Part shown: positions 7,848-32,221 of the stretch, piece by piece
How the letters are laid out: every line of letters starts with the position of its first letter
How positions within the stretch are numbered: position 1 is the first letter of the stretch
Assembly: GCA_008632985.1 (NCBI GenBank)
Contig: QPGO01000090.1
Span: 62,001-126,000 of the forward strand
DNA: 64,000 nucleotides
Direction: 5' to 3'
From: Psammoneis japonica
Lineage: Eukaryota
Notes under the pieces: model-generated
Databases searched by the model: none
The model's input: the letters and a program-made list of their open reading frames with translations, nothing else
Told to the model about the DNA's origin: nothing
Made by a program: the position numbers and the translations under genes

Positions 7848-7852
<5 letters not shown>

Positions 7853-7880
<28 letters not shown>
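7853..7880. repeat. (CT)14 microsatellite
   Basis: Directly visible. Confidence 0.95.
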
Positions 7881-7884
<4 letters not shown>

Positions 7885-9684: not shown

Positions 9685-12600
9685 TGCTCGTTGGATTCTC
9701 GTAGAATGGGCAGAAGCGTCGCAGCTCAGAATCTACAGCTCGGCTCGGGGCTGTTCGTCACGCTGAATACTGAATACACTATCAACCATGCAATGAACAG
9801 AGAACAAACAACTTGTAAACTTGTTTAGTAGTCAGGTGAGGATTTTGCGGGGTGTGGCGCTGTTGACAATAAGCCCCCCCGCCAGTTTCAGCAATGCTGC
9901 TGTCTGTCTGTATTCAAGCACCTGCGACACGGCCCCCACCCAGTCCCCCTTGTGCAAAAAAATCCGTTGATGCGACAACAGCCGTCGCGCCATAATTTTT
10001 TCACTTCATCGATGGTTTTCCTTTCAACAAGAGCGTTGGTCAAGAGAAGCCTCCTGCGTGTTGTCGTTGTCATACCTGCACTCGAAGCAATGCTTGTAAA
10101 GATGGTCAAGTCCTTCACACGACTTAAGAAGTTGAAGCAAAGCACATCTCAAAGTCAGTGCCCCCCCTTTGAACAAGTGCGAAAGAGGAGGGTGTGATGC
10201 TGAATGATGTGCTGGAAAGCAAAAGGAAGTTGACAAAGCCAGTCGATTCAAATGGAGGTGTGATCAACTTAAGAAAAGCAAAAAAATCATGAAAGAATTA
10301 AAGCTTGAGTTGACTTAGATCAAAAACATGCAAATGGCACACATCAAAGGGCCAGGGCACAAGAAGAGGGGCTGCAACGAAACTCGCCACACGAGCCCAG
10401 ATGCTTCAAGGTGCAAGTCATCAGAGAAAGTTTGACTCAGGTTCTGAAAAAGGTTGAGCCAGATTTCCTTTTAGCACTGCCACAGGGCTGCAGAAACAAC
10501 CTTGTCAAGAAGAGTGCTTTGAGCAATTGCTTTTCTCTGCATCACACAAGAAGCATTTTTTGATGCTCCCGAGTCTTTGGCAGATTGCAGCACCTCCACA
10601 AGCAATCTCAACTCAGTTGGGGATGCCCCAGCATTGAGCCCAAGGATGCATTGAAGCCTGTGTTGTGTGAAAAAATGACTGAGTTGAGTGTGAAAAAGAA
10701 AAACAAATGACCCCCACTGTCATGCTGATGTGGAGCACCAGCAGCAAAAAGAGCAACTTCTTGCTGCTGGACCACATTAAAGTGCCAACTCATCCAACTG
10801 TGGTGCCACAGGAGTTTGTTCATTCACAATGCCCTTGCATGCACCCAAACATCAACAGCACAGCAAACAGTTGGCGGTGGTGACCAATGTGCTTCTTGGT
10901 GTCATGGCCCTTCCCTCATGTGAGCACTGCATTTGCAACACCTCTGTCAGGTGGGGATGTGGATGAAACCTCTGACCCAGTGCACAGGTCTGCCCAAGGC
11001 TTCACTTTTCTTTGCTTGATGAGGTGGGAACTGAGCATGCACCTGGATCAGGTTGGAAGTGCTTTTCTTGCTCAGCGGCAGAGTTTTTGAGCACACAAGA
11101 GCTGAGCACAGCAGCACAAGATTTGCAAGCAGCACTGCACCTGTTTTCTCAGAATGAATGGTGACAGGAGGGTTGGGAGCATGGAATTGACACAAGTGCT
11201 CAAACTGCAGCAAGCTTGTGAAATTGTGCAATGGTTTGCTTCTGCGTGTTGTGTCAAAGGCTGTCAAACACCAACTTCCTGATGGGATCATTTGTGCAGT
11301 TCCGAGAAGCCATTTTTCTTTTTGCCTCACAAAGAGGTGAGCAGCAGTGACAGTGAACTGGCAGGTCACAGAGAGCCAGACAATGGAAAAGCCCTTTTCA
11401 TCAATCTTCCCAGTCAAAGCACAAGCTGCCTCAACACATTTCTGACTTTTCACAAGGGCAAGTTGTCCTTGGGTAAATTTCACAATCTGTTGGCCTGTTT
11501 TGGAGATGAGGGTTTGCAACAAACAATGCTTGTCAACAGTTTGAACCTCCATGGTGTGACACAACCTCAAGCAGCTAAAGCCCAAAGGATCGACAAAGTG
11601 AGGGACAGATGCAGTGGGGTGATGGACAAATGGGCCTTTGTTGAGGGGGGTGGGTGAAGAGAAGTGTGGTGTGTGTGTGACTCCAAGGTGCTGGACAGGG
11701 CGGCAGCTTGGTGGAGAGGGCATGGAGGAGCTTGTGGTTGAGTTTTGGGGCATGCCATGCAAGTGGTCTGCTGGAGACTTGGTGATGGCACAGCTGGTGC
11801 CACAATGGAGCGCAGTGTGCAAAAACTTGTTGTTGCTCCAAACTGCTGCATCAGATGGAAACATGCCTTGTGAGGAGCATTTCTTGTGAAAGAGAATGCA
11901 TCAAAGCAGGTGAGTGGGGGGAAGAGAAACTGAGTTCCAGGGTGGATGGGGGGGAAGCTTCTGCTGGCAACTTGCTGGAAGAAGAGCCAAATGAGAGTTG
12001 TTGGCAGCCAAAGCAGGCAACAATCAAGAGAGCCCAGGTGACAAACAGCAAGAACAGAGTGATGTGCTTTTTGTGGTTGAGGCAGCCAGAGTCACAGTGG
12101 GCCCATGTGCTTTTTTGCCGTTTCCCTGGAGCCCCCTCTTTGTGAGCACAGACAAGCCTCTGAAGGAGCTTGAGGAGGAGGAAAGAGCTTCCAAACAGTT
12201 GCATCAATGGCCATGCATGCACAGCAGAAGGGAAAAGCACATTGTGGCAAAAGTTTGAGCTGGGCACCTGGGCTCATCATGATCTTTGGGGCACTTTGCT
12301 GCTCTTTCTCACTGTGTGCTTTAGTCCAGCCATCAGGCATGCCATTGGCCAAGTCACAGCTGCAAAAATCTGAAAGGTGCAAGCGGCAAAGGACTCTAAA
12401 AATGGGAAAGGATCAAAAATGGAAGTGGGAGAAAAAAGTGCTTCTTCTGACAAGGTGCACAAAGCTCAGACCTTGTTTTCTTTGCACATGGTCCTTCTTC
12501 TTGGAAGCAACAGTGTCAGCAGCATTTGCCACTTTTGCTCCTCATGCCAGGCAGCCACAAGCAAATCTGTTTTGATGACAGCTCATTTGGATGTGATGAT

Positions 12601-13618
12601 TCCACCATGAATGTCAAGGAATGGAATCTCTCGAGCCCCAAATGACTCAAGAGACAGTGGTGGGGAGAAAAGAAGAACCCGCCAGCACCCTGCACCTTTG
12701 CGCTGGCATGTGATTTGAAGCAAATGAATCTGCACAGCCACAGCATCATAAAGAACACAGCTCATGCCAAGGCAACCACACAGTCTTTCACAAAGCAGGA
12801 GCATGTGATGGAGAGGAGCACCCAATGTCTGGAATGCAAAACAACAACTTGTGCATCTGAAGTGGACTGCATGCAATGTCGTCACTTGTTGAACAAGCTA
12901 CACTCCCAAGCTCCTTTGTTTTTGAGAAAGAACAAGAGCGCAGATGAGGCATGCTGAGAGTCTCGCTGTGTTGAACAGCAAAAGCAATGATCAAAAGAAG
13001 AAAGAAGAGATGGAAAGAGCTGTGGTGAGCCAATCATGCAGTGTGGGTGCAGGCAGAGAAAGGCAGTCCACAGAAGAATTGCACTCAAATTTGGAAAAAC
13101 TGGCAACAACAGTTTGGAGTTAGAGCACAAGTGCTGTTGTTCCAAGTCCTGCCTGCAGCCTTGTGATGCATGTTGTTTGATCTGGCATGTTTGCTCATTG
13201 CAAAGATTGTGGCACAGCAAGACATGGCAACTGTGGTGCAACAGAGAACACCAGGTCAAATGCAAAGGGTGTTAAGTTTGGCAGCAACAAGAAAAAAATG
13301 CAAGCAGAAAGGCAAAGGCAGGGGCAACAAGAAACCACAACTGGCACAAAAGTTGGTGAAAACACAAGTGCTGGCTGAGCTGTCAAGCAACAATGAAGAC
13401 AACAAGGAGGAAGAGGAACAATGCAAGAGTGCCACAAACCCACTGGAGGCTGCTGTTCAAATGACAACAACAGCATGTTGCAGAGCCAGCCCAGCCCAAG
13501 TGGTGCTTGCAACTGTCCTGGCACATGAAGCCAATCCTGGCCAGCAAACAACATCACAGCAACCAGCAAACAGGGCAGCAAAAAATTAGAGATGACTGGC
13601 TTCTGAGCACGTGGTGCA

Positions 13619-14100
13619 CCTTGTCACTCAGCAAATTCTGATTTTTGTCTCAGCAAAGGCAATGACAACATTTTCAACAGGAATCGTTCGAAAATGTCGT
13701 GTGGGTCATAATTGACATTTTGCACGAGGAAAACCACCACAAAATCGCGCAGAAATGTGCACAATGTCACGCGAGAGAGTGATCAGAGCTGATGACTTTT
13801 CGGGAACTGAGTTGAAATGCCATCTGATTGACGGCGTTGGCCTTCACCATGTGAATCAAAATGCCGTCAATCAGACAGCATTTCAATTGATTTCCTGAGA
13901 AATTGACACTCGTGTGCGGATGGATGGACAGACTGACGACAATTGTTTTTAGTGCTCTCCTGCACAATTTCTGCGTGGTGACTCTCAGGACCCGAATGAC
14001 TCCCATTGGCAAATCCACTGCCTGCAATCTAAAAAAAGGATCTTCAAAAGTTGTGATGACAAAATCAGCATTTTTGTTTGTCAGGCATTTGGTGACAAGG
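13619..14100. mobile_element. Fold-back MITE-like element, about 480 bp
   Basis: Ends CCTTGTCAC..GTGACAAGG with subterminal inverted match (CTGATTTT..GTC). Central hairpin about 13800-13900 (GTTGAAATGC.ATCTGATTGACGGC / GCCGTCAATCAGAC.GCATTTCAA). No clear TSD. Confidence 0.65.
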
Positions 14101-15567
14101 GACAGGGGGTTCCTTGAAGCACAAACATTTTTGTAAAAAAAAATTGTTGTTCACCACAGTTAAAAGAGCAAAGTTTTGAACAACCAGCCATCTTTGATGG
14201 CGCAAAAATTGCACCTGTGAAAGGGGAAATTTTGCCATGAGATGGGTGCCCTTTGAGGCAATGTGCCATCTGATGTGGCTTCCATTGAGAAAGTTGGCAG
14301 TCCAAAAAATTGCTCATGCTGCCCACCAGCCACCAGCTCAGGCTTGCTTTGAGCCTGATCCTCCAAAGGAAGCCTCCCACTGGCCAGCGCTTGCTGCTTA
14401 AGAAGACCAGGGGCAGGAGAGTGATGCGTGAACCACTTTTTGAGCATCATGTCAGCATGGGCCCAGACTTCTCAGGTGACTCTGAGGTGGATCTGTTGCC
14501 TCCAAAGATCCCAAAGCTGTCAGATGCCACCATGGCTGCTCTGTCATCAAGCACATCAGCAATGTTTCTCTTTGCTCACAGCCCAAGCTTTGAACCAAAT
14601 TTGCCCCCTGCAGCACTGAGCCCAACTTCTTGGAGTTGGTGCCTGCTGCTGCAAGATGTGCCAAGCTTTTTGTGCATTTTTCAGAGGAAGCATTGACAAA
14701 AGATTTTTCTGAGTGTTGCCAGCAAGAGAGAGCACCTCATTTCTTGTTGCTTTTCCCATTTTTTCAAAGAACAAGAGCAGCAGCAGCCAACCAGCAACTG
14801 ACAGCAGCCACGTGCACTGATTTGCAATTCTTCAAACATTGTGGCTGTGCTGTGCTGTGCTGTGCTGTGCCATCATGCTCTGCCACACAAGAACCCAGCT
14901 TCAAATGACAGAACAAGAAGGTGCTCATTGGGGACCTTGGATTGAAGTGGCAATGTGGACAAAGTGCTGGGTGCACAAGAGCAAACCTTGGAGATCTCAA
15001 GCACAGCTGAGGCATCCTTGAAAGTCTTGGCTTGGCTGTGGCACTCAATTGTTTCGGTGGTGTAAACAACTGCAATGGTTGGAGGGGCTTCAATGGGTGG
15101 AAGGGTCGTTTCACCTTGTCAAACTGGTGCACTGAGGATGTTCATGCATGGGTGACTGCTTTGGACCACACAACTGCTGGAACAGAGAGCAGCTGCTGAG
15201 GTGACACAGGGTGAAAAGGTGCAGGGAATGATGTGGCACAGTGCAAAAAGGTGCAGCGAACAATGTGGAGAGCTGCCGGCTGCAACCAGAATGGTGTGCC
15301 ACCAACACAGATGCTCTGTCAGCACCAGTGTCCTGCTCTTTGCAACATGCAAAAGGTGAGCTGATGACACTGTCAGCATCCTTTCCAGAGAAGCCGTGGT
15401 GTTTGTTTGTGGTTGTCCAAGTGCAAAATGAGCAAGCTTTCTTGAGCAAAAGATTTGGGCTGAACTCAATTTTCCATGAATTTTTGTGCTGTGCATTTGC
15501 AGTCAGGCAGCTCCAGTTGCACTGAGAAAGCTCTTCATGAAATCAAACCAGTGCATTCTTGTTAGCT

Positions 15568-15945
15568 TCAAACAGTTGCAGGCTGCTGAGTGACCAACAA
15601 TCTTGTCTTGTGCAACTCTGTGAGGATCTCAGGTGTCACATCATGTTCTAAATTGTTTGCAAGCAAGACAGGCAAGTCATCAAACAACCAATGCCAGCCA
15701 TTGGACCCATCGAGTGTGTCCATGACAGGTGTTGCTCCCATGTTCAGGGCTTCCCAAGTGCGGCAGCAATCATGTGCACAACCAGATGGGGACAGAATGA
15801 ACTTAGATTGTCTTGATTCTTCAAAGCAGTTGTCCTCAGCTCCCATCTTGCAAGCATTCTTGACACACAGACCATCAAACTTCTTCAACACAGACTTTGT
15901 GGTGCTCAACTGATTGTCAAGCTCTTGGCAGTTAATCAACCACAA
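15568..15945 (-). pseudogene. Exostosin/GT47-like glycosyltransferase C-terminal remnant
   Basis: SKFILSPSG..HDCCRTWEALNMGATPV...LFDDLPVLL matches the family pattern SKFxLSPxGxGxDCYRxWEALxxGxIPV..LPVL, with Tyr converted to Cys. Confidence 0.7.
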
Positions 15946-16398
15946 GAAGCTGTGCTCTGTTTGGAGACCAAGGCTGCTTCAAATGCCCCCATTCCTTGCT
16001 CCTGGTGGCAGAACATGCACTGCGCCATCTGTTTGCACAATGTGCACTTGCTCTTTGTCACAACAGCCACACTGCAACATTTGTCAAGCATGTCATGCTG
16101 CATCCCCCACCTGTTGTGAGTTTCAAAGAGGAGCCAAAGGTGCGCCACTGGGGGCAATGTTGACAAAATGGCCAACAACTGCTGAGCCTCTCTTGAAGGA
16201 TCAGATGAGTGCGGCACCACACTTGCACTGAAAAAGCAGGGGAAGAAGCTGGAGAGGAGCAGTGCCATGACCCAAGCAACCTTGAAGGGCATGACATGGG
16301 CCAGCTGGCTTTTGGAAAAAAGATGATGCAAAGGCTGCAAGGAGGGTTTGGAGATGATGGCATGTTTGCCATGAGATCCATCATTTGGCCACATTTAA

Positions 16399-16920
16399 CA
16401 CGGGATCCACGGATGCACCAGGGGAATCTGCGAAACGCGGGATGAAAGGGGAAAGGGGCAAATGTGAATGGTGGAAAAGTGACATGCTGCTGTTTTACCT
16501 GGAGGGACCCTTTGGTCAGCCAAACACGCTTGTTGCCGATTTGACCTCGCAGGTCGTCTTTTGAGGTCGTTAATTTGAGAGAGCAGACGCGGTCTCTAGA
16601 AACAATTTTGTGCATTTCATCAGACCATTGACATTGTGCAAATCTGAAAACGACACACATGAAAAAGTGAATTTTCAACTTTGTGTGACCTTCACAGCCG
16701 TGCACATTGTGCAACGATCAATCCTCAAGACGCGTCCCGTCACAACATTTTGACACCCCCCACAAGACGGACCTGTGATGGTCAGATGAGAAATGTGCGT
16801 GTGTTCGGCTCACTGAAGGGACCCTTGAGGCACAATGACAGCCCCTCACTTTCCCACCATTCCCATTTGCCCCTTTCCCCTTTCATCCCACAATTCCCGG
16901 GTGCACCCATGGATCCCATG
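16399..16920. mobile_element. TTAA-flanked MITE with long imperfect TIRs (piggyBac-like)
   Basis: TTAA|CACGGGATCCACGGATGCACC ... GGTGCACCCATGGATCCCATG|TTAA. Arms stay complementary for well over 100 bp (GGGATGAAAGGGGAAAGGGGCAAATG). Confidence 0.8.
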
Positions 16921-18215
16921 TTAAAGCTGCACATCTGGAGTGGTGGTCTTTGTGCAACTTTCCAGCACTGCAGTGGAGAGAGATTTTTCTCAGCAACTGA
17001 GCACATTGTCAAGACAGCTCAGCAAAACACTTTGCACAATGGCATTTTTGTGGCATCATTTTTCTTGTTTGTGCAAGGGATGTGATGCAGCAGTGAAAGG
17101 CAATGGAGAAGCATCTTAAGTTGCACAGAGCATGTGTGAGGTGTGTTTTCTGCCTTTGTTTTGTTGCAGCAAAGCATGATTGCAGTGAGCCTGGTGCTGC
17201 ACCACACGCATCCTGCACAGTGTGCATTTTCTCTGTGCAATTGTGCACTCCATGACTGCAGATCCCTGCACTGCATGCTGTGCATTGAGCCTGTCCCTGG
17301 GAGCAGAAACAAGCCAAGGACAAAGTTTTCAACTCATGCACCATGCGACATCTCAGAGTGGGGGGATGTGAGAGTGTGTGTGGTGGCTGGTGCTCACCAC
17401 AGACAGCTTGGACACCACATTTTGACATGCAAGCACAAACCCATCATGCAGGTTCCACTCGTGTGACTCTGTGTGACATGGTGCAACAATCTGCAAGATC
17501 CATCATCCCAGCTGGTTGAGCATGCAGCCAGAAATGAAAGACACAATGACTGCACAAGAGCAGGCCCTCTGCTCTTGCTGGCTGCAGCAGCCAGGCTGCA
17601 ACTGGAGCTGCACTCTGGAGTTTTTGAGCAGATTTCCAAGCAACTGGCACTGCACCTCCTCACCCAAGTTGAAGCTCATTTTTTGGAGGGAAAACAAAAA
17701 GTGCAAGGATTGTCATGTGTCAGGTTGCTCAACAACGATGCTCACAGCAGCTTCTTGAAAATCCTTGGCTTTTAGAGCTGCAACCTGTGCCCACCTTCCT
17801 CACCCACCTGTGAAGCTCCCTGAGTGCCAAGGTGCACAAACCCACCATGATGCCTGATGTCCAAAAAATTGCTTGCATCAAAACATGTGCATCAGCTGTT
17901 CTCGTGGACTCTTGCACTCACAATCAATGGATGCCAGCAGACCTGTGGGCAGAGCACTGCAATGCAAAATTCAACATCCAATGAAAAGGGAGCCCAAATC
18001 ATGGGCAGAAAGATGAAAAATGTGTGTGGCGGTGTCAACAGCATTTAAAATTTGATGGAAAAGAACAGCGTCACAATGTTGCCCATGGCAAGGGTGGGTT
18101 GTTGGGGGCTGCAGTGTGAGAATGCAGCTCATGGGAATGGTGTCTGAACAAAGCTGTGTGCAGTGGATGAGGTGTGTTTTGCCAGCTCAAAAAGACATGT
18201 TCATCAACTCACATG

Positions 18216-18427
18216 NNNNNNNNNNNNNNNNNNNNNNNNNNNNNNNNNNNNNNNNNNNNNNNNNNNNNNNNNNNNNNNNNNNNNNNNNNNNNNNNNNNNN
18301 NNNNNNNNNNNNNNNNNNNNNNNNNNNNNNNNNNNNNNNNNNNNNNNNNNNNNNNNNNNNNNNNNNNNNNNNNNNNNNNNNNNNNNNNNNNNNNNNNNNN
18401 NNNNNNNNNNNNNNNNNNNNNNNNNNN
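18216..18427. other. Assembly gap (N run)
   Basis: 212 N. Confidence 1.
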
Positions 18428-18579
18428 GGGAAGATGGCCAGACAAAAAGGGGTGTGTGAAAGATTGTCCTGTCCAAGCCACACACAATTGAGTGTCTGCC
18501 TCCTGCTGCCCTCTGAAACATTCCAATGAAGTCATGCAAACTGCAGTGTGAGAAATCAATTCATGGGAACAACATCAGC

Positions 18580-19660
18580 CTGCAGTTGACTGTGGAGCAC
18601 AGTGATGCCTGCATTGGTTTTGATGCTCAAAAGAAGAAGAAGAAGAAGAAGCACACAAAAAGTGACCACAAAGATGGCCAGGACATGGTGGTGAACAACA
18701 TCAATGAGTGGCCTCAACTCTTGCTTTTCAGGCAAAGTTGTTTCTCCTCAAGACTCTCTGCTGTCTTCTGTTTCATGATGTGCAATCTGCACTCCCAACA
18801 TGATGCAATGGCCTCACAGCCAGCAACTTCCCGGAGCTTGCAAAGTGCAAAAGCCCTCCACATTCTTTGCCCTTCACAGCTTCACACACTCATTGGTGCA
18901 AAATTTCCCACATGCAATGTGGAGGAAGTCAATGAGTTGTGCCTGTTTCAAGACAAAATGCATCAAGAGCTTGTCTTTTGAACCCAAAAATGGACACATG
19001 CTCAAGGGTGTTGTTTTGGAAGCCCCTCTGGGTTTGCCTGTTTGCTTCCCACTGTTGCACCAAGGACTCCACTGTCCTGGTTCATGCCCTCTTTCAGACA
19101 TTTCATGGCACATTTCAGGCCAGCTCCTTGCTGTGAGATTTGGAAGTGGGTGGGTTGGCAGCATTTGAGAATGGGGACTTTTGGAGTTGTGGCTGCAATC
19201 CTGTCACTCTGTGAGCTCTGTTGCTCCACGACATGCAACAAGAGCTTTTCCCAAGAATGGCACACTGAGTTCAAATGGAAAAGGCAGCTTGGCAGATTTT
19301 TCCTGAATTTTGTGCAAAGCATTGGTGATCTCACATCATGTGATGTGCACAAAGCCCGCCTTTTGCTTTGATGCTCCATCTGAAAAAAGACGCTGACACT
19401 GGCTGCACCAAATTGGCTGCATCAGCATCCACAGGCATGACTCAAATTTTTTTGTCAGCTCATCAACCTTGGCTTGGACTTTCTGCCAAGTTGCCAAGTT
19501 TTTCTGTGCTGCTTCTTGCGCTCCTTGTTCCAGCCCTTCAGCTGGCCCTCTCTGGAGCACCGTCAAACAACCTTGCATCTCACACACTTCTTCAGATCCT
19601 TTGGCAAAGATGAGAAGCATGGAAAGTTGCTGCAATTTTGAAAGCTCACATTGCTGCTGC
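18580..19660. pseudogene. Hypermutated paralogous copy of 6510-8550 (F-box-like 5' part and MYND 3' end), lacking about 7170-8145
   Basis: Collinear matches such as GACTGTGGAGCACAGTGATGCC vs GACTGCGGAGCACAGTGATACC, and CCTTGCATCTCACACACTTCTTCAGATCC vs CCTTGCATCTCCCGCACTTCTTCAGATCC. Confidence 0.85.
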
Positions 19661-20584
19661 GCTCAAGCCAGTGCCATGGACAGCAAACACCTTTTCACCA
19701 CCGCCAGCTCTCTTGAGCAAGAGGACAAGGGGAGGCACTTGTGGTCTTGCGGCATCCTCTCATGCTGGCGCTGGTGCTCCTCCTGGCAGCGGGTGAGCTC
19801 CTCCTCCTCCTCCTTGTCCTCCACCCTCATTGCAGCACACACACACAAAAGCCAGGGGAAAAAGATGCACAAAGCTGTTTTCTTGTTGCAGAGCCGGCTC
19901 CAGTGAGAGTGGAAAACTTGTTGTGGCTGCTGTGAGTGGGGAGGAGCAGCAGCACTCATTTGTCTTCTCAGTGAGTTTGGCTCTTGTCAAAGAGCAAAGC
20001 ATTTTCCAGTGGGCAATGGGTGCAGATGGGTTGGTTGGAGGAAGTTTTGAAATGAAGAGGGGTGCAGGGGGCTTTGAAATGGAAGGGAAAAGGGGGTTGT
20101 CCAACGCACAATGCGATCTTGTTGACAGCAGGTCACGTGTTTCTTGGAAGAGGATTCTCGTTGCTGCTTTTTTTTTTGACAATCAGCAGTGCTCCAGCAG
20201 AGATTGTGGCTGCTGTGGACTGAGTGATGCAACTGCAGTTTCCAGCCAGAGGCCCCACATCATCATGTCATTTTGTTCATTTGCGCTCGATTGCACGCAC
20301 CTCAGGCACCTGGCTGGAGTCGTCAACTCCTCGTGCGCGTCAGTGGACGCATCACAACTTGAAGTTTGTCATGAACCCTCGACAGCTTCAGCCGACGCAG
20401 AACATCTTTCGTGGATTCTTTTGAACAAAAAGAAGAAACCAAGCACACAACGCATGTGCGAGCATTGCCGGCATCGCCGCTGCTGTCACCAAGCTGAGAT
20501 GACCGATGCCAAGCACAAGGCCGCTGTTGATTGTGCCCGCAAGGACGTTGAGGGGATGTTTGAGAACTCAAATCTGCAAGATGA

Positions 20585-23411
20585 GGCACGTTCCCACCCT
20601 GACAATTTCGGCCGTAAAACAAACACAATTTCGTTCTACACAAAATTGCTGTAGAAACTCTCGTACAAGAAAAATCGCACGTCTGTTTTCCATCCGCCAA
20701 TTTAGGCACGTTCCCACCCCGATAATTTCGGCCGTAAAATAAATGTAATTTCGTTCTACACAAAATTCCTGTAGAAACTCTCGTACAAGAAAAATCGCAC
20801 GTCTGTTTTCCATCCGCCAATTTACAGCCGAAATTATCAGCAAATTACGACGACAGGTGTCGGTCGTCGTAAATTCTCTCCCGTAAATATAATTTTCACG
20901 GTAAATTCGGCGTTTTGGGAGCTCGAACGTGCCACGTCACACAAGCCGCCCATTTTTTTCTTTCTCCGCTCCGCCCGATCGCACAACAACCATGATGGCT
21001 GCTGCCATGAACGGACCCGTTCATACACGAACGACCGTCCTGTCTACGAAGGTAAGAATGTAGAGACAGGTCAATAAGACTACGCTCGATACGATCAAGC
21101 TGTCACAATTTTGATTTTTCGTTGTTGTTATGGCTTATGACGACCGTGTCGACTAATGGTATTTTTGATGTCTTCGTTTCTCTTGTTCAGATTTCGCGTT
21201 GGGATTCTTCACAAACCATACGTCTACAGACTTGAGGCCGAATCCTCGTAGCAATATATTATGATCTGATGTTACATTGAGGTGGTTCTTTGGTGTGTGC
21301 TCAAGGTTACTTGATTGACGGTCAAGAGTCAAGAATGCAATATTTTGGTCACTTCAACAACAACAGGAAGGCTTGTTGTGATAGAATATGACTATGAAGA
21401 AGGCTGTGTGCACTTATTTCATCAATCTTGTCGGAAGTTAGGACAATGATGCCGGTGGGGGTCAATGTTTTGCGCAACATCGTCGGCATTGTGCCTCACA
21501 GTGCCTTACTCTACTGTCTGGAGGCCTTCTCTGCGACTTGCTCTTTGTTACTTTGCTCTTTGAAATGGATTTAGGCCAATGGTGAACTGCAAGAGTTGAC
21601 AATGGTGCCTTTTAGTACCTCACATTCTGTAGAAATTACATTTAGTAGTTTTACATGCTGTAGTCTCACTGCATGCCATTGTTTCGTGCGTCTTTCTGAT
21701 CTCTCTGCAACTCTTGCTAGTGGATTGAATGTTGGATATATTTCTTCTGACCTTCACTGGTGTTATCCTGAGTCTTGGGTTACCGTAGAGCAATCGCAAA
21801 ATGGACAACGATTGTCGCTGACAATGTTGTGGTGTCTCTCTAGCTAGCAGCTCTAGCCAGTGCTGTAGTAGCAGTGTAAACAGTGCTGTGGCGTGTAGCG
21901 TCCTCACCGAGCTCGACATGAGATTTTGATCTTTTTTACCGATCGAATTCGTTCCCAGCCTGACGCCCGTAAATACGTAAATTTGGCCAAATTATATTTA
22001 TTTTACGGCCGAAATTGTCAGGGTGGGAACGTGCCTTACAGCCGAAGTTGTCAGCAAATTACGACGACAGGTGTCGGTCGTCGTAAATTCTCTCCCGTAA
22101 ATATAATTTTCACGGTAAATTCGGCGTTTTGGGAGCTCGAACGTGCCACGTCACAAGTTCCCCATTTTCTTTCTCCGCGCCGATGTTCGCACAACAACCA
22201 TGATGGCTGCTGCCACAAACGGACACGTTCGTGCACGAACGACTGTCCTGTCTACGAAGGCAAGAAGGTGGAGACAGGTCAACAAGACTGCGCTTGACAC
22301 GATCAAGTTGTCAGAATTTTGATTTTGCGTTGTTGTTGCAGCCTGTGACGACCGTGTCGACTGACGGCATTTTTGATGTCTTCGTTTCTCTTGTTCAGAT
22401 TTCGCCTTGGGATTCTTCACATGCCACATGTCGATCGACTTGATGCCAAAACGAAATGGAAACACATGGTTTGATGTTGCGGCGACGCGGCTCTTTGATG
22501 TGTGTTCCGGGTTGTCCACTTCTGGGGCTTCGATTTGATTGAGGGTCAAGACCACACAAGGTTTGGGCATCGACGAAAAGAAGGCTCATGCTCCGTTGTA
22601 ATCGAACATGGTGGTGAACAAGGCCACGCGCACTTTTTTCATTGCTCTTGTCACAAGTTGGCACAACAAGACTGGCGGGGGTCAACTTTTTGCACAGCAG
22701 CTTCGGCAACGTGCCGTGCAGCACCTCGCTCTGTTGTTTGTTCTGTTTTCGTGATGCACCCAGATCACTTTGAAGCCATGGGGTTTGATCTTACATTTGC
22801 ATCAGTGTTTTTGCAATTGCATTGGAGTTTCAATGCTTGGTCTCGCCCTGCATCCTGTGACTCGGGGCTTCTCTGCTCGGTTGCCCCGCCGGTGCGGCGC
22901 ACAAAGTTTCTTTTTGCTCCGGGCTTTCCCATCGCCACTGCATTGCCCTGACCTTTGTCCAATGGAATTGCAGCAAAGGAGCGCCGTTGGACAACGTCGC
23001 GGTTGCCTTTTAGAAGCTGGGATGAAGTGCAACTTACACTGTGGCAGTGCTCCTGTCAACGTGACTGCGTGCCGCTGCAAAAAGAAAACACATTCGTCGT
23101 GCTTTTCTCTCTGCACTTTCACTTGACAGTGGATTGGATGCTTTTCTTCTGATCTTCACCAGTGCAATCATGAGTCTCAAGTGTGGGGCAATCGCAAAAT
23201 GGACAACGACTGTCACTGACAAGGTTCGTGCGTTCGATGCCTGTCCCACCAGTGGAGCTGTTAGCAGCAGCGTTCTCACCGAGCTCGAGATGTGATTTTG
23301 ATCTTTTTCATGTACGGTTCGAATTCATTCCCAGCCTGACGCCCGTAAACACGTAAATTTGGCCAAATTGTGTTTATTTTACGGGCGAAATTATCAGGGT
23401 GGGAACGTGCC
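20585..23411. mobile_element. PIF/Harbinger-type non-autonomous element (outer copy, about 1.49 kb of own sequence)
   Basis: TIR GGCACGTTCCCACCC.GA.AATTTCG..CGTAAAA at both ends. 3-bp TSD is TGA on the left (mutated) and TAA on the right. Confidence 0.88.
20705..22035. mobile_element. PIF/Harbinger-type non-autonomous element (inner copy nested in a relative)
   Basis: Same TIRs with a perfect TTA TSD (20702-20704, 22036-22038). The outer element resumes at CAGCCGAA after it. Confidence 0.92.
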
Positions 23412-24994
23412 TAAGTCTGACGAATTCCCGAAATTTACCAAGCAAGAGCTCAAACTCGGAAAGATCCTTGGCAAGGATGGCGTTTTCACCGTAAACGAGG
23501 TACGCGCCTTTTTGGTGGGAGGGGTCAAACAGGAAAAAACCAAAAGGGGCAAGGAGGATGAGCAAGTGACGGATGGTGAGAGGGAAGGTCGCGATTTCAT
23601 TGCGAAACACTGCCTTCGTACGGTGGCAATGCACGTTCTTATGCTGTCAAGTACCTTGCAAAGGACAGGATCGGAGACGACCTGGGTTTGTACATTCAGG
23701 TCATCAAGGACCTAGCTATCGAAACGCGTTTCTTATCAAGCATTGTACATCCTAACATTATCAAGTTGAGAGCCACGTCGAATCTAGATCGCTTTGAAAA
23801 AGATTACTTCATCGTGATGGATAAGCTTTATGATACCTTGGACAAGCGTCTTGCCAAGTGGCAAAAGATCAACAAGGGAACCCAAGGCTTGGTTGGAAAG
23901 CTTGCACATCGAAACGGGAAAAAGGCGATCAAACTCATGCAGGATCGACTTGTTGCTGCTTTTGACCTCAGTGCCGCAATCGAGCATCTACACGAGCACA
24001 GGTGATGTATCTGAGAATTGAGTGCCTTCACATTCTGCTGCCCGCTACTAGCTAGTAGCCCCCTCTAACCTGCTTCTTATTCCACCTATTATATTTGACT
24101 GCGCAGAATAATTTACCGTGACATTAAGCCAGAAAACGTCGGTTTTGATGTGAGAGGCGACATTAAGGTTTTCGATTTTGGCCTTGCCAAAGAGATTCAT
24201 CCTGAAATGAGGGTGAGAACAGCGACACATACAAGTTGACGGGTTACACCGGTTCCATTCGATACATGGCTCCTGAGGTAGCCCTCTGCAAGCCTTACAA
24301 TTTTGTGGTGGATACCTACAGCTTCTCTATTCTGCTATGGGAAATTTTGGCCTTGGAAAAACCTTTTGCTGCATACTTGATGTCGAGCTTTGCTACCAAG
24401 GTGCACAATGGAGGAAAGAGGCCCTTCATCAAGGAGGAGTGGCCTGTGCCCATCAAGAATCTCCTCGCAAATGGTTGGTCAGAGGACATTTCGGAACGTC
24501 CTCAAATGGGGGATGTTACCCAGATTCTCAAGAGTGAACTTGTCCGTGTGCATTTCGGTGAAGACACGGGACAACTTGAACACGAACGCAGGCGCTCAAC
24601 CTTTGTCTTTGAAAAGGGACAGTGAGTATCCTTTTCTGAACGCTTTCTAACTGCATTTCAGAGTTTTGTGTATGTACACCCCTATTCCTAGGAGAAAAGC
24701 CTTTCGAATCAATCACTGCGGCTTGGTTTACACATCGAGGGTGCTACACGACTTCAGCCAAGTAGATGGGTTTCCTTTGCATTTTTTCAATCCGTTATAT
24801 TTTCACATGTACGTGTACTCCAAATCCATGTTAGTTACAAAAGTAACCGAGATTTCTTCTCTTTCTATTTATGTATCTTTGCATGCCTATTGCTTCTCTG
24901 CAAAAGTCTTTCAAAACACACAGTCGCTTGGTTTGTATTACGATAGCGAGCGACACACTCTTTGTCTCTTACCACAACAAAAGACTTGTGTTAC

Positions 24995-25867
24995 TCAAAA
25001 CAACTTGGGAAGCAACATTCCGGTCTGTTTCTTCCACTCGTTGTATTCTGGATACCGCGACAGAGACTTTTCCTTGGTTGGTATGGTAACGAGGCAGGAA
25101 ACCGTCACAAGATACGCAATGGGGACCCACGAAAGGGGTTTCTTGTACCCCGCCACGACAATCATGGCCAACCACATTAGATATTCACCCAAATAGCTTG
25201 GATGACGGATCCGTGAGAAGAATCCTTCCGTAATGAGACCAGAACCGGCGTATTTTAACGTGAAGAACTTTTGTGCATCCGCCGCATAATGAAAGAATCC
25301 GCCAATGACAAACAGAAAGGATGATAGAAAGGTCTCGTACACGGTCAGGGGTTCTTCGTTCTTGACGGCAAGGTAGGGGTACAAAAAGTACAACGACACA
25401 AAGGCAGCACCCGTCAAGACGAAACCCAATCCACCTTGATTATCAGGTGCATTGTAAAATTGCTTGTCCCAAAAGATGTACGACTTGATCACCCAAAGCA
25501 CACCGTATCCCCCAAACATGCCAGCCATGAGACCGGCACGTGGTGTGTACGAATCAAAAGCCACCATGAGACCGAGGGCTAACGGAAGCCAAACCGCCTT
25601 GTGAAATTCAAGCATGCGTCCTACAGAGTATTTTCCATGAGGCAGCACGGCCTTGCCCATGGGGTCTTGTTTAAGACGACGACCAAACGCACCACCGCGA
25701 GGCACCAGTGTCACACGAACCGATGATGATTCTTTTTCTCCATGGAGTGAAAATGATGCCAATTGAGAGAGCGGCTGTGTTGGAGACATTCGGGCTGCCA
25801 CAGAATCATGAATGCAATAAAATGTCAGCAGCGCCACGATGGACGAAAGGAATGGATGACTCCTCAT
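24995..25867 (-). CDS. DUF1295 / steroid 5-alpha-reductase-like membrane protein with signal peptide
   Basis: ADAQKFFTLK..GLITEGFFSRIRHPSYLGEYL, KEKSLSRYPEY..WKKQT and several hydrophobic segments. Likely start MRSHPFLSSIVALL. Confidence 0.85.
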   Translation of the reverse strand: MRSHPFLSSIVALLTFYCIHDSVAARMSPTQPLSQLASFSLHGEKESSSVRVTLVPRGGAFGRRLKQDPMGKAVLPHGKYSVGRMLEFHKAVWLPLALGLMVAFDSYTPRAGLMAGMFGGYGVLWVIKSYIFWDKQFYNAPDNQGGLGFVLTGAAFVSLYFLYPYLAVKNEEPLTVYETFLSSFLFVIGGFFHYAADAQKFFTLKYAGSGLITEGFFSRIRHPSYLGEYLMWLAMIVVAGYKKPLSWVPIAYLVTVSCLVTIPTKEKSLSRYPEYNEWKKQTGMLLPKLF

Positions 25868-26049
25868 GGTTTCCACGCAGTTCGATTGTTGTGTGTTGTG
25901 TGTCACTGTGTCACGCTTTCGAAAAGAGGAGAAGATCGCAAAGTCAAAAGATTCAAGATCGGAGCGAGATCGGACATCGGGTGTGCGCATGCATAGCTAT
26001 GCTCGCGTTCGTTTGTGTGCAGATGATGAACGGATGAATAACAGACGAA

Positions 26050-29000
26050 CGAAGTGTCAGTTGAATGAACGAACAATGACATGTGTGTGATTGTGTGGTG
26101 TAATCGGAGACACTGCTTCTTTCCACTCGGCAAAAATGTTCATCACCTCTTCCTTGATTTGTGTTGCCATTTTGATTGACATCTCCCTTCCTGAACTGCA
26201 TTGGTTGCTCTGACCATTCTTCGCCCGCTTTGGATGGGAGAGGGCCAACCGGTGAACCAATCCTAAGATCTCAAAGAGGTGTGTTCTTCATGGCAAGTCA
26301 TTTGGACATTTTGTGCATGACAGTTCAACAAATGACAAATCAGGTTGCTGCTGACATGTCCTTGAGTGCCACATGCACTTTTCTTTTTTTGTTGTCGTTT
26401 TTGAACGCACCGGGAGTGACAAAGTTTGTCACAACATCATCATTTGCCCATGTGCCAAACAGCTTTTGGTTTGTTGCTGCAATTGCACTGTTTGTTGGGA
26501 TGCATTTGCAGATGGAAGAAGCCCTCAAAGACTGCAACAAAGGCTTGTTGCTGCAACCAACTTGTTTCAAGGCCCAGCTTTGTCGTTTCTCCATCTGCCT
26601 GCTGCAAACAACAATTGGAGAAACATGACTGCACACTTGAGGATGCTCTGATGGTCGTCAGAAAGCCAGGTTAGTCTGAACTCAAAAATTCAACCACTTC
26701 CTGATTGGAACAACTGAGCAAGGAACAGTTTGAGAAACTCTGGCAGGAAACAACAATGGGGCAGCTCAAGGATCTTGGCAACTCTGTTTTGGGCAACTTT
26801 GAGCTCTCTCTTTTTGGGATCTTTGTCCCAACACCAGATCCTGCAGCACATCATTCAATCAAAATGACAAGTGGAGCCAGGTGTTTAAATCAAAGCTCAT
26901 TTCAATCCATGTGTTCTTTTGAGTGGGTGGATGGCATGGATGTCAAAGCAAAGGATTGCAAAGAGAGTCTCTTCTGTGATTCATGCAAGCCACCCAACAG
27001 AAAATGCAACAGCCTCTTTCTCAGGAATGCCACATCACTCCAGAGCACACCACCATTTCTGGAGTGTAAAAACACAAAGAGTCACTCTTTTTGTGAGACC
27101 CAGTCACTGCCAGAGTGGGTCACTTGAATCTTGCAGTTGTTGAACAAGTGTCAGAACGTTGGCTGTGTGGTGCAATTGGAGGCACTGCTTCTTTCCACTT
27201 GGTTGAAATGTTTGTCCCCTGTTCCTCAATCTGTGTCACCACTTTGATTGAAGGACCAACAGGTGAACTGACATGCAATCTCAAAGAGTGGAAACTGTGC
27301 AATGTTCATGGTCAGTCAATCAGAGATGTCTTGTGTGACAGTTCAACAAAAGACAAATCAGGTCTCTGTCTGCACATTCTTGAGTGCCATGTGCAACTTG
27401 GTTTTTTGCAGCGCCATTTTCAAATGCACTGGAGCAAGAAAGTTTGTTGTGGCATCATTCAATGACAAAGACATTGCAAAATCAATCAATGTGGGAATGC
27501 CATCATCATGTTCTTGGTCAATGTTGACTTGCACTTTGAGCTCTTGTCCTTGTTGAGGCCATGCTTTGTGCTTGACTCCATCATCATTGTCATCATCAGC
27601 AGTGTTCTCAGGCAAAATGCAAAAAATGCAGGCTGTCCTTTCCAAAATGGCTCTGACACCACCCTCCAGCCACTCTGCAAATTTCAAGCTCTGTTCTTGT
27701 TGCACTGAATTGGTGGGGCAAGAGAAAAGGGCAAACAGGAGTCAGTCTTTTTCAGGAGACAAACTTGCCAGTCCAGTGAATGGGGGGAGTGCCACACAGC
27801 CCAAAGATCTTGAAAACTGACAACCAACAGCAAAATTCAGGTGTCATGTGAGCTTGCCACAAAGGAGGTCAAAGCATGCCAAACAAAGATGGCTGAGGGA
27901 GCTGAGTTCCAGGGTGGGGTTAGAGAGGGAGCAGGTGCTGTTGAGAATCAGCAGCTGAGGCTGCTTCTGCTGCTGAGCAAGCCCACCACAAGGTGACCAG
28001 CAGCAAAGCAGAGCAACTTGGGCCAATCTGTGTGGCAGCTGAGAAGTGGTGAGCAGCCTCAGCAGGTTTGTGAGCTGTTTTGTTGCTGCCTTGAACCTTT
28101 CTCTCTTTGTGCTCAAATTGTCACTGTGCACCCCTGCAAGTGAGTTAACACATGCATCCCAAAAGCAAGTGGGAAAGAAAAGAGGGGCTCAGAGCAGCTG
28201 CACCATGATGCACAATCTCAGAGGGGGGGGGGGGGGGGGCAGGTGAGGCAGCAAACAGGCCCAGTGCAGGTTTGAGTTGGATGCATGCATCTGCAGGGTG
28301 CTGCAATTTCTTGCCTGGCACCAGCAGGTGTCAGAAGCTGTGTGCAGCAAAGGTCATGGAAGACAAAAAGATGAGCTTGTGGTGGCTGGAAGTGCCTCAA
28401 AGCAGGCACCATGTGAGTGCCAGATGAGCTGGTTGAGGCCAATGGGAAAGAGAAGGGTTCAAGCAGTGTCGGGGAAGGCTTGAGCCAGGTGCAATGCTGG
28501 CACAACAGAGAAATGTGTCCACTGAGCCAGCTCAAAAAAAAACTGACAAATCTGGTGAATGTCACCAGAAAGGTGGTGCACAGCAATGCTGGGTGTCAAC
28601 ATGTTTTTTGTGTGTGCCAACTTCACTCTTGTCAGCCATCTCTCTTTGCCTTTTGGCTGCGACTTTTTTGTGGCAACTTTTCCAACATTTCCAACAAAGC
28701 ATTGGCTGCTTGTAAGCTGCTTTTTGAAAGTGGGCTTTCATCAGTGATGATGGTGACAACGCAGAGGAAAAGAGCAGTTGTGGTGAGAAGTTCCTGATGA
28801 AGCAACCACCACAGCCATTAACACACACATGGACAAAGATGGAAAAAGCTGGCACATGCCAAGTGCAGAAGAGCTGTGCACTCAAAAAGATGGAAAGTTC
28901 CAGTGGTGACAGTTTGGAGATGGGCTGCAAGCATTGCAGGTTAAAAATTCACCCACAGTCAAATGAAACATTTGCTCTGTCTGAAAATTGTTGAGATGGT

Positions 29001-29485: not shown

Positions 29486-30742
29486 CTAGAAGCTACATTC
29501 AAGCAACCTCCAGAGAATGTGTTTCAGATGCTTTTCTTTTGAAGAGCAGTGTAAAAAGATGTAATGATAGACACAAATTTTGAATTTTCGCCCTGCATTA
29601 ATGCTGCTTCCCGTCTTGTTGTGGATTTCAGAGACTCCGTCTGGAAGCACCTGTCGAACGTTGATGTTTACTCGATGCTGAGAAAGATAGACCGCTAGCG
29701 CCTCTCTTTCGGAATCTGGCACCAGGCATGTTGACATGGCGGCATCATTTCTTGGACTCACATTCTGTCGGTCCTCTGAAGAGGTACATTCATTATTTGT
29801 TAAAGTAAACTCTTTGGAAACACTGGGGATGGGTACAGCTGCAGGTATCACTCTTGCCATCCCATGAAAACACAATCGGCTTTTCCCTCCCATCATCATG
29901 ACATCTCCAGGACGAACCAAGATTGGAACAACCGGATCTTGTTTTGATTGGCCGCCCAAGAGAAACACTGCTGCTAGCCCCAGACTCATGGACACGACGG
30001 GCTTGTCTAACGCGTACTCCAAATCATCCTGATGACCACCCATGATGGACTTGCAGTGGTAGAAGTTCACAATGCATGCAGACGAAGTAAACTTGAGTGC
30101 TGATGGTTTGGAGGACGGATTTGTATGCCATAGCGACGTCAGTGCAAAGGATGACGCCAATCGAGCTAGATACTGGGGCACTGGAGATTTGGCCTCTTCT
30201 CGATAAGCTCGAGCTGTCCAATCATAATGATATCCCATTGTCGACCACGAAAGTTTGTCAAAACTTCGATACTTCTTCTTTTTCTTCTGTTTGCCGTTTC
30301 TATTTTTCCGACTTTTGTCGTCGTTTCTAGTGACCGACGACGACACGTTTTGCTGCTTCCAGAGTTCCCACATGGAATCATCCGTGTTATTTTCTTCCAC
30401 ATGTTCTCGTGGCGGCATGAGATCAATGTTCGTTCTGTGTGGTTTATCGCAATATTGGGAAACAGAAAGATATGCGAGCTCCATTTGAACTGATTCAGAG
30501 AGCGCTTGAGGTGCGTAGAGAAAATCCGGAGCAGAAGATATGCCATACAGGGGTCCAATGTATTGTTCCGGATGGATCGGTTCAATGGCTTCTACTTCGA
30601 AGATTCGGTCATCTTCTCGTGGATTGGAAAAATCTGCAAGCTCCGTCAAGTCGTCAATCCGATTGGGCGAAGCTCCTTGTCGACGGTGTCTCTGTTGTGC
30701 CCGTTTGAACACGGATGTCCCGCCATCTGCACTTGTTGCCAT
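29486..30742 (-). CDS. ALKBH1: AlkB-family 2OG-Fe(II) dioxygenase, ALKBH1-like
   Basis: LSWSTMGYHYDW, IVNFY...GGHQDDLE (HxD), SMSLG..AVFLLGG, GDV..MGGKSRLCFHG and RVNINVRQV. The extreme C-terminus is uncertain. Confidence 0.88.
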   Translation of the reverse strand: MATSADGGTSVFKRAQQRHRRQGASPNRIDDLTELADFSNPREDDRIFEVEAIEPIHPEQYIGPLYGISSAPDFLYAPQALSESVQMELAYLSVSQYCDKPHRTNIDLMPPREHVEENNTDDSMWELWKQQNVSSSVTRNDDKSRKNRNGKQKKKKKYRSFDKLSWSTMGYHYDWTARAYREEAKSPVPQYLARLASSFALTSLWHTNPSSKPSALKFTSSACIVNFYHCKSIMGGHQDDLEYALDKPVVSMSLGLAAVFLLGGQSKQDPVVPILVRPGDVMMMGGKSRLCFHGMARVIPAAVPIPSVSKEFTLTNNECTSSEDRQNVSPRNDAAMSTCLVPDSEREALAVYLSQHRVNINVRQVLPDGVSEIHNKTGSSINAGRKFKICVYHYIFLHCSSKEKHLKHILWRLLECSF

Positions 30743-31178: not shown

Positions 31179-32221
31179 ATGAGAGTCACTACAGTCGCAC
31201 TTGGAGTCGTCCTCCTTTCTACGGGCGTCTCATCGTTTGTTCCCGTGTCACATCGACATGCTGTGCCTCGTGCATTTGTCTTGAATGCCAAGAAGAAGAA
31301 AAAGAACAAAAAGAAAAAAGCCAAGGTTCAAAAGTCGTATGCAGAGCTGCTTGGACGCACAGATACAAGTCAGGATGGTGAGAACGACACAAAGGAACTG
31401 CATGATTTAGCTTTTCAGTGAAGGAGTCTAACGGATAAAAATTGATTTGACTGTTTTCTACAGAAGGAACTACAACAATGGTCCTGGAACCACCGGCTGT
31501 AGAGGAAACTGTCGCCGAGGCAGCGCCAGTTGCAGAAGAACCTGTTGTCGAGGAACCAGTCGCAGAGGAAGCACTCGTCGTTGAGGAACCAGTTGCGGAG
31601 GAATCGCCTGTTGTGGAGGAGGAACCCGCCGTCGAAGAACCTGTTGCGGAAGAAACACCTGCTATTGAGGAGCCGGTCATTGAGGAGGAGCCCGTCATTG
31701 AAGAACCTGTTGCAGAGGCCGCTCCTGTTGTTCAGGAACCGGTTGTAGAAGAACCTGTTGCAGAAGAAACACCTGTTATTGAGGAGCCAGTCGCAGAGGA
31801 ATTGCCAGTTGTGGAGGAGGAACCTGCCGTTGAAGAACCTGTTGCTGAGGCTGCCCCAGTAGTTGAGGAACCGGTTGTAGAAGAACCTGTTGCCGAGGAG
31901 ACACCTGTTGCCGAGGAGCCAGTTGTGGAGGAGGAACCTGCCGTTGAAGAACCTGTTGCTGCGGTTGCCCCTGCAGTCGAGGAACCGGTTGCCGAAGAAG
32001 CTGCTGTTGTCGAGGAAGAACCTGTCGAGGAGCCTGCTCCTGCAGAAACTGGACCAAAGTTACAAGATGCATCTGTTTACGAATCGATGGGGGTAGAGGA
32101 GCGTGCATTTAGCATTTTGGCCGACCTTGGGATGGTTGGGCTCAACACTGACCCAGAAGATTCTTCGTATGACAACTCCAAAGATGACGAGCTTGTGGCG
32201 GATATTATCTACGAAGAATAA
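31179..32221 (+). CDS. Plastid-targeted protein with poly-Lys patch, long acidic EEPV(A/V)EE repeats and a short C-terminal domain; 2 exons (31179-31377, 31464-32221)
   Basis: Signal peptide ending VSS-FVP. The intron 31378-31463 (GTGAGA..ACAG) joins SQD-E-GTTTMVLEPP in frame. Confidence 0.85.

Follow-up and report, generated by a model that had tools for sequence, protein, structure and literature searches.

Loss of TpA without loss of CpG in the outer of two nested transposons of Psammoneis japonica

Known rewriting of silent DNA by mutation is cytosine-based (repeat-induced point mutation (RIP), CpG decay, APOBEC-type editing). In fungal RIP, context-specific transitions wreck non-genic and repeated DNA in sharp-bordered blocks beside intact genes; the changes are C-to-T, create TpA and lower CpA/TpG. 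The CpG decay of methylated transposons converts CG to TG or CA and leaves TpA alone. TpA itself carries base J in the telomere repeats of kinetoplastids and, together with TpC, 5-hydroxymethyluracil (5hmU) in dinoflagellates. TadA/ADAT, which deaminates U33-A34 of tRNA, and ADAR are adenine deaminases with a preference for a 5′ T and act on RNA. Many diatoms encode DNMT4, which is related to the fungal RIP enzyme RID and whose function is described as unknown (PMC9998398). Here we analyze a 64,000-nt stretch of the Psammoneis japonica genome (contig QPGO01000090.1, positions 62,001 to 126,000; hereafter the window, to which coordinates refer) in which one transposon (the outer element, 20585–23411) contains another of the same family (the inner element, 20705–22035). 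The body of the outer element has lost nearly all of its TA dinucleotides and kept its CG. Comparison with the inner element, with related copies and with the rest of the window supports the view that the loss of TA and the loss of CG are separable, TA loss being the faster and wider of the two.

The terminal inverted repeat of the family is present four times in the nest, on the plus strand at 20585 and 20705 and on the minus strand ending at 22035 and 23411. The repeat is about 35–48 nt long; its arms of 48–50 nt are 90–94% complementary, and each of the four ends has one mismatch to a 35-nt pattern that was matched in none of 100 shuffles. The inner element measures 1331 bp and the outer element 1493 bp once the inner one is subtracted. 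An exact TTA duplication (20702–20704 and 22036–22038) flanks the inner element, while the outer element is flanked by TGA on the left (20582–20584) and TAA on the right (23412–23414), one transition apart. The element coordinates given in an initial annotation of this DNA are borne out by the four matching ends and the flanking duplications, and both example strings that it had cited were found in the sequence. Searches of the nest with Pfam (39 open reading frames (ORFs) of at least 45 aa) returned no matches, and the nest is non-coding; a search of 20000–24000 with Rfam (E values up to 0.1) also returned none. No DDE (Harbinger-type) transposase domain was found among the ORFs of the window, and the exact terminal-repeat pattern had no match when scanned across the metagenome collection. 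A 3-bp TTA/TAA (TWA) duplication is the hallmark of PIF/Harbinger elements, and to judge by this duplication alone, the nest looks like two non-autonomous, PIF/Harbinger-like cut-and-paste transposons of one family. Non-autonomous PIF/Harbinger elements, the Tourist-like miniature inverted-repeat transposable elements (MITEs), share with the nest the TTA/TAA duplication, terminal inverted repeats of about 48 nt, the lack of coding sequence, the presence of many copies and self-nesting at TTA. Strict MITEs are usually shorter than about 800 bp; at 1331 and 1493 bp the present elements are longer than that, and we refer to them as non-autonomous elements rather than strict MITEs.

The outer body (22156–23299) contains 6 TA, compared to 67.4 expected at random (observed/expected ratio, o/e, 0.09) and 38.4 expected at the level of the normal blocks of the window (Poisson P = 1e-10). 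Its CG number 67 against 73.5 expected (o/e 0.90). The inner element has 73 TA (o/e 0.72) and 72 CG (o/e 1.11). The ends of the outer element (20585–20704, 22039–22155 and 23300–23411, 349 nt together) hold 17 TA. The counts thus agree with what the initial annotation had claimed about the nest, namely that the outer body is nearly TA-free yet CG-rich, that the inner element keeps TA and that the subterminal parts of the outer element partly keep it. An alignment of the two elements gave 954 reliable columns with 140 mismatches (92 transitions and 48 transversions). At the 44 positions where the inner element has TA, the outer element has TA at 17, CA at 11, TG at 12 and another dinucleotide at 4; conversely, the 19 TA of the outer element correspond to 17 TA, one TG and one GG in the inner. 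Differences at CG were symmetric, with 11 inner CG reading TG or CA in the outer element and 10 cases the opposite way.

The window (GC content 0.48) alternates between normal genic blocks and blocks that we call converted, the borders between them being sharp to within a few hundred bases. The converted blocks (33.8 kb sampled) contain 95 TA (o/e 0.04) and 284 CG (o/e 0.14), with CA at 1.89 and TG at 1.82; in normal blocks (17.8 kb sampled) the o/e is 0.57 for TA and 0.97 for CG. Dinucleotides other than these four are essentially equal in the two kinds of block. GC-biased gene conversion, considered as a cause, was rejected, since AA, AT and TT do not differ between block types. State calling in 300-bp intervals with a step of 100 (n = 638) classified 346 intervals as fully converted, 202 as normal, 83 as TA-low/CG-kept and 2 as TA-kept/CG-low; about 12 of the 83 fall within genes, where TA is low for coding reasons. 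A Pfam search of 115 ORFs from converted and border blocks gave one weak RT_RNaseH match (47611–48057) and two sub-threshold ones, and no recognisable genes. With TAA and TAG eliminated, long spurious ORFs abound in converted blocks.

One converted segment, 18541–19665, is a decayed paralogue of the normal segment 6471–8547, with an overall identity of about 70%. In the first of two aligned stretches, 14 of 21 TA and 24 of 29 CG of the normal copy read CA or TG in the converted copy, which retains no TA and one CG; in the second, the same holds for 7 of 12 TA and 14 of 18 CG. Comparison of 17000–20584 with 5000–10000 by tblastx revealed that the paralogy stops near 19690; that duplication thus does not extend to the left flank of the nest. 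When converted paralogues are compared with each other, 13 CA-versus-TG double differences appear in 361 nt; such doubles are what is left when an ancestral TA or CG is resolved independently in each copy. The converted paralogues 36097–36460 and 42482–42846 have one TA left versus 8 sites at which CG is kept in at least one copy. Among CG, those in a WCGW context go first and those in SCGS are relatively kept. The normal copy at 6471–8547 comprises the end of a dienelactone-hydrolase gene and a MYND-finger gene, and a 212-N assembly gap lies at about 18001–18500, within the converted block.

In the outer element and in the converted blocks TA was lost, not gained. One site across the four terminal repeats of the nest reads TA, CA, CA and TG, and only a TA ancestor explains these states by single steps. 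The inner and outer elements show 10 CA-versus-TG double differences. The TA level of the outer element is far below that of every normal block, while that of the inner element (0.72) is ordinary rather than raised, compared to 0.57 in normal DNA. Finally, the same blocks show change of CG to TG or CA, which a reverse process cannot produce.

The TA process prefers RTAY and spares YTAR contexts. The residual TA of converted blocks comprise 1 RTAY, 65 YTAR and 29 mixed sites, compared to 205, 122 and 373, respectively, in normal blocks. At mixed sites the outcome was RTA to RCA or TAY to TGY in 14 of 19 cases (two-sided p = 0.06). In the outer body, TA was converted in every context. Outcomes in the outer element are strand-balanced and interleaved (11 CA and 12 TG, in 12 runs versus 12.5 expected, by hand count), with no sign of a strand-coherent or processive burst. 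The proposal that conversion was episodic is therefore unsupported by these 23 alternating sites, and a steady process, fast relative to background substitution, fits them equally well. Retro-copying of hyper-edited RNA (ADAR-type) was also considered and is excluded by the interleaving of both outcomes in a DNA transposon.

The outer body, with a TA o/e of 0.09 at a CG o/e of 0.90, agrees with the earlier suggestion that TA loss is independent of prior CG loss, and the same combination is found elsewhere in the window. TA-low/CG-kept islands occur within converted blocks, for example at 13501–14100 and at 16394–16937; the latter is a MITE-like insert with inverted ends of about 130 nt in which only YTAR-type TA are left and about 17 CG are kept. 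TA-low/CG-kept zones also flank converted blocks (9901–10300, 20101–20700, 25601–26300, 35601–35900, 49801–51700, 59101–59500 and 60101–60700). These islands and border zones indicate that TA loss neither needs nor follows CG loss. Three structures in or near such DNA were recorded besides. A palindrome with 51-nt arms lies at 13797–13901 in a converted block, with TA almost gone and CG partly kept. The 1.9-kb zone at 49801–51700 contains a 518-aa ORF (49862–51418, minus strand) with no family match, either a gene or a spurious frame. At 59373–60506 there is a tandem duplicate of about 570 bp with 75% identity, high CG (o/e 1.4) and low TA (0.15–0.26).

Read contigs (one sample, three runs, one study; sets X1 and X2) were compared with the nest. 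X1 contigs on the unique flanks have depths of 57–92, while depth sums to 1000–2800 over the inner element and to about 92–170 over the outer body; thus, the inner family has tens of copies and the outer element only few relatives. Exact X1 contigs cover 20147–20442 (295 nt, no differences) and the right flank (3869 nt). One X1 contig of 318 nt, record 6, matches 22392–22709 of the outer body with 29 differences. It has TA at 9 sites where the outer element of the window has CA or TG, and at 4 sites it reads TG opposite a CG that the window retains; three CA/TG doubles and about 8 other changes complete the comparison, so that divergence other than conversion is about 2.5%. Having lost some CG while keeping TA, it is the mirror image of the window copy. 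Retention of these 9 TA means that the outer subfamily was TA-normal shortly before and that the TA-free state is not a subfamily trait, contradicting the possibility, named beforehand as the one to exclude, that every outer-subfamily copy is equally TA-free. Moreover, all 484 bp of the left flank are free of TA, and the difference between the TGA and TAA copies of the outer duplication was counted in favor of conversion in place. The TA-poor state of the outer element was very probably acquired, and we infer that its conversion happened at this locus. An empty-site joint from 20704 to 22036–22039 was absent among the 15 of 22 contig joints listed, a result that is uninformative. At 20147–20442 two X1 contigs were present, with depths of 33.5 and 31.5 (each about half of the unique depth); one equals the window and the other has 27 differences and 14 gap letters, as two very divergent alleles or a paralogue would.

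The same signature was found in another organism. The window encodes an ALKBH1-like protein whose best named relatives are diatom proteins (Seminavis, 46%), and the corresponding profile recovered 35 metagenome loci, 20 of which, each at least 3 kb long, were profiled for composition. Eighteen of the 20 were normal throughout or nearly so. The two exceptions, L016 and L017, originate from separate assemblies of one diatom-like species and have 99.93% identity over 5.8 kb; both contain a 1.3-kb block with TA o/e of 0.0–0.17, CG o/e of 0.07–0.41 and CA/TG of 1.6–2.0. Residual TA in this block are 7 YTAR, 5 mixed and no RTAY; outside the block the contig has 87, 300 and 112, respectively. L016 and L017 differ by only three substitutions, a CA/TG double and a TA/CA difference at GTAC, a sample too small for statistics. 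A 916-aa ORF on this contig has a sole named relative, in Seminavis robusta (48%). The block demonstrates that the signature is no artefact of the window's assembly and is not confined to one species. The gene for the ALKBH1-like protein, a predicted 2OG-Fe(II) nucleic-acid dioxygenase (29486–30742, minus strand), adjoins a converted block in the window, which is probably a coincidence.

To account for these data we favor a combination of locus history and two separable mutation processes, an explanation to which, taken as a whole, we give about even chances. The outer element would have inserted at a TAA in a protein-kinase gene, about 28 codons from its start and exactly where a silent, converted block meets normal genic DNA, and the inner element, from a subfamily that is still abundant, would later have inserted at a TTA 120 bp within the outer one. 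Silent DNA would be eroded by two context-specific transition processes that can act separately. The first, from TpA to CpA or TpG, would strike individual sites on either strand, with the highest rate at RTAY and the lowest at YTAR; compared to ordinary substitution it would be fast, and it would reach a few hundred bases to about 2 kb past the fully converted blocks. The second, from CpG to TpG or CpA, presumably by deamination of 5-methylcytosine, would be slower or more narrowly confined; its trace is seen in converted blocks (CG o/e 0.14) and not in the outer body (0.90). The outer body would have gone through the first process in place and hardly through the second, and the inner element through almost neither.

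Several observations weigh against this explanation. Record 6 may be a paralogue or an allele, and the window's own 22446–22592 is absent from the filtered X1 contigs, an absence that we do not use as evidence. The paralogues in converted blocks are only about 70% identical overall, so bulk conversion could be slow and old. In L016 the stretch 5001–5500 is CG-low and TA-normal, and TA-first is thus not a universal rule. The left 237 bp of the outer element, situated between a TA-free flank and a TA-free body, keep 11 of 15 aligned TA, including RTAY sites; this retention, together with a divergence of 0.8% from the inner element at other sites, is not predicted by a uniform process acting in place. 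Lastly, the TA-low/CG-kept border zones cluster, and are widest, on the 5′ side of genes, and this clustering points to a state set by place rather than time; TA-low/CG-kept may in part be stable where it is found and not only a stage.

The last point can be extended to a full alternative, in which TA-low/CG-kept is a stable local state: the outer body would lie in the promoter-proximal zone of the kinase gene, where CG would never be methylated and so would not decay, the TA process would act on all non-transcribed DNA beside a silent block, and the nested pair would reveal where the processes differ in action and nothing about their time order. The zones on 5′ sides are 20101–20584 (kinase), 25601–26300 (DUF1295, start at 25990), 35601–35900 (ZIP, start at 35354) and 9901–10300, and with the inner element removed, the flank and the outer element form a single border zone of about 1.9 kb, like that at 49801–51700. 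However, TA-low/CG-kept islands also lie deep in converted blocks, in what appear to be later insertions (16394–16937 and 13501–14100), and the CG residue of converted blocks (0.14) exceeds the TA residue (0.04), as expected if TA loss is simply faster. We consider it unlikely that local state accounts for the data, though the pattern may be partly spatial, with unmethylated promoter flanks that preserve CG and still lose TA. As to the time order that the initial annotation had read from the nest, faster TA loss stands; the state may partly reflect place, and the later arrival of the inner element is likely but unproven.

A different alternative concerns the outer element itself. Its TA-poor body could have been inherited from a converted donor, or the element could be a gap-repair chimera with young ends and an old interior, in which case only about one third of the end sites would have changed here. 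Aligned TA of the outer element are kept/converted 16/8 at the ends versus 1/15 in the body (Fisher p = 2e-4). Similarity to the inner element drops sharply at 22155/22157, from 98% to 85% and then about 71%, and at a double TA site both outer terminal repeats show the identical outcome. All this would suit a chimera or a converted donor. Against either stand the 9 TA that record 6 keeps at sites converted here, with about 8 other differences in 318 nt, from which the ancestor must have been TA-normal shortly before, and the flank beside the outer element, which is itself TA-free, so that the process did act at this place. Inheritance or chimerism is in our judgment a rather improbable origin of the TA-poor body. 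The retention at the ends, by contrast with the conversion of the body, is explained equally well by shielding, by conservation of the element termini, by copy correction with the family's many members as donors or by chimeric origin. Divergence from the inner element at other sites is 0.8% in the left 237 bp, 8.1% in the next 300 bp, 13–18% in the middle and 7.7% in the last 155 bp. The earlier claim that the ends are shielded thus holds insofar as they keep more TA; the left 237 bp are about 10-fold less diverged in general, which does not single out shielding. Flanking context was tried as a sufficient cause of the retention and rejected: all 8 end conversions are at ATA/TAT, yet 3 RTAY sites are kept there, and in the body no context escaped conversion.

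It is also conceivable that the inner element is protected rather than young, its family being transcribed or lying in open chromatin, and that protection spreads about 120 bp into the outer element on each side. On the left side of the outer element, TA is retained in precisely the two segments, of 120 bp and 117 bp, next to the inner one, and X2 contigs, which are RNA-like (one has a GT..AG skip at 23998–24104), match inner-type sequence. But the X2 contigs on the inner element carry 13–22 differences and so come from other copies. The family is abundant, and 83 of 377 contigs are at least 99% alike, as recent activity predicts. TA contexts in the inner element are like those of normal DNA, with two conversions at its ends, and TA already lost cannot be restored by protection. 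The chance that protection explains the contrast is accordingly small, and the inner element is likely younger.

The remaining two explanations fare worse still. Reverse polarity, with TA gained by RIP-like C-to-T change at CpA/TpG in the inner and other TA-rich copies and the outer element as the original, can point to 21 of 28 listed differences that, going from the window copy to its X1 relative, read C>T or G>A. It is very improbable, since that comparison also includes 4 A>G and three CA-to-TG doubles, neither of which C-to-T change can make, the TA and CG of the functional paralogue 6471–8547 correspond to CA/TG in the decayed copy (C-to-T cannot make CG), one terminal-repeat site shows three states, and TA is far under the normal 0.57 in the outer body (0.09) without being raised in the inner element (0.72). 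A base-calling or assembly artefact, of the kind that modified bases cause as systematic miscalls in some long-read data, deserves next to no credence, given the exact X1 contigs over 295 nt (20147–20442) and 3869 nt (right flank), though X1 may be the assembly's own data, the recurrence of the signature in another species, in two metagenome assemblies that are independent and of short-read style, and the ordinary divergence that paralogue alignments show alongside conversions.

The segments of the nest and its surroundings are collected in the table.

Table. Segments of the nest, its flanks and the comparable metagenome block (window coordinates unless a locus is named)
Feature	Position	Strand	Remarks
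Fully converted block left of the nest	10500–20100	.	TA and CG nearly gone; CA/TG doubled; includes decayed paralogue 18541–19665
Left flank	20101–20584	+	TA-low/CG-kept, 0 TA; exact 295-nt X1 contig
Outer target-site duplication, left copy	20582–20584	.	now TGA
Outer left terminal inverted repeat and subterminal 120 bp	20585–20704	+	5 TA kept; 4 TA conversions, all ATA/TAT
Inner element	20705–22035	+	1331 bp; TA o/e 0.72; CG o/e 1.11; TA contexts resemble normal DNA
Right TTA copy of inner element and outer subterminal segment	22036–22155	+	98% identity to inner 20822–20941; TA and CG kept
Outer body	22156–23299	+	6 TA (o/e 0.09), 67 CG (o/e 0.90); 71–85% identity to inner; low-copy subfamily
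Outer right end and terminal inverted repeat	23300–23411	+	TA partly kept
Outer target-site duplication, right copy	23412–23414	.	TAA
Protein-kinase gene, remainder	23413–24622	+	normal composition; intron 23999–24103; Pkinase positions 24–258 in three ORF pieces
TA/CG-depleted block	L016 3751–5000; L017 ~355–1750		

The glycine-loop exon of the protein kinase begins directly after the nest. An X2 contig skips 23999–24103 (105 nt), which has GT..AG ends, as a spliced transcript would. If the nest and one copy of its duplication are removed, the frame of the left flank appears to join the kinase exon in phase, with an ATG about 28 codons upstream; the left flank therefore probably holds the former coding start and promoter of the kinase, and the outer element probably split the gene near its start. 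At the nest junctions, 20583–20591 on the left resembles a GC-type 5′ splice site and 23410–23418 on the right supplies an AG; if the nest were spliced out at these sites, the frame of the kinase would be preserved. Elsewhere in the window, a tandem array with a period of 33 nt (and 15–18 nt) lies inside an ORF at 31469–32082 and would give a repetitive protein.

When set beside the described systems, the locus resembles fungal RIP in its sharp-bordered blocks of context-specific transitions next to intact genes. Unlike RIP, the change is from A:T to G:C and destroys TpA, down to an o/e of 0.04 in converted blocks; it also leaves the abundant, likely young inner element untouched while low-copy DNA is converted, and the outer element has no strand-coherent tracts. 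RIP targets duplicated sequence; here the converted blocks hold decayed paralogues, and the abundant inner copy is unconverted. CpG decay agrees with one half of what fully converted blocks show, the change of CG to TG/CA; the outer body, however, shows the TA half without the CG half. In titles and abstracts, with subscription journals outside the scope of the search, no description of TA-to-CA/TG conversion of silent DNA was found, and a mutation process of this kind, distinct from CpG decay, is apparently undescribed.

As to chemistry, we can offer a conjecture: TpA may be enzymatically modified or deaminated in silent chromatin. Thymine hydroxylation of the JBP/TET kind, resulting in T-to-C, would be one way. 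Base J and 5hmU are chromatin-linked enzymatic marks on a T before A, and if such a mark were mutagenic, it would yield T-to-C at TpA on either strand. To our knowledge, thymine modification at TpA is not known in diatoms and no such mutational footprint has been described for base J or 5hmU systems; a literature search on thymine modification turned up only dinoflagellate work. Adenine deamination of the TadA/ADAT kind, resulting in A-to-G, would be another way. Conversion of A to inosine after a 5′ T would turn TpA into TpG, and the TAY preference seen here (14 of 19) resembles the TadA target; TadA/ADAT and ADAR, however, act on RNA, while here both DNA strands of a DNA transposon are changed in an interleaved fashion.

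TpA has been almost wholly removed from about half of a 64-kb window, with sharp borders and a four-base context rule, in the chemical direction opposite to that of the known cytosine-based systems. The nested pair is useful here because it presents the TA component acting without the CG component, with unconverted relatives at hand. With some hesitation, we suggest that some diatoms may possess a mutator, specific to chromatin domains, by which TpA is erased from silent DNA through A:T-to-G:C change, first at RTAY and last at YTAR. It would be mechanistically separate from 5-methylcytosine decay and faster, and would make a second, chemically different counterpart of RIP, based on an enzyme acting on T or A at TpA by modification or deamination; we hold this to be possible rather than probable. 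If this is true, the nested pair, the MITE-like inserts and the border zones would form an age series from which both rates could be read. An active process would point to a system of DNA modification or deamination, as yet unknown, in one of the major groups of marine algae. It would rid silent DNA of two of the three stop codons and of many regulatory words, would provide a dinucleotide clock for dating insertions, and would explain why old repeats become unrecognisable there.

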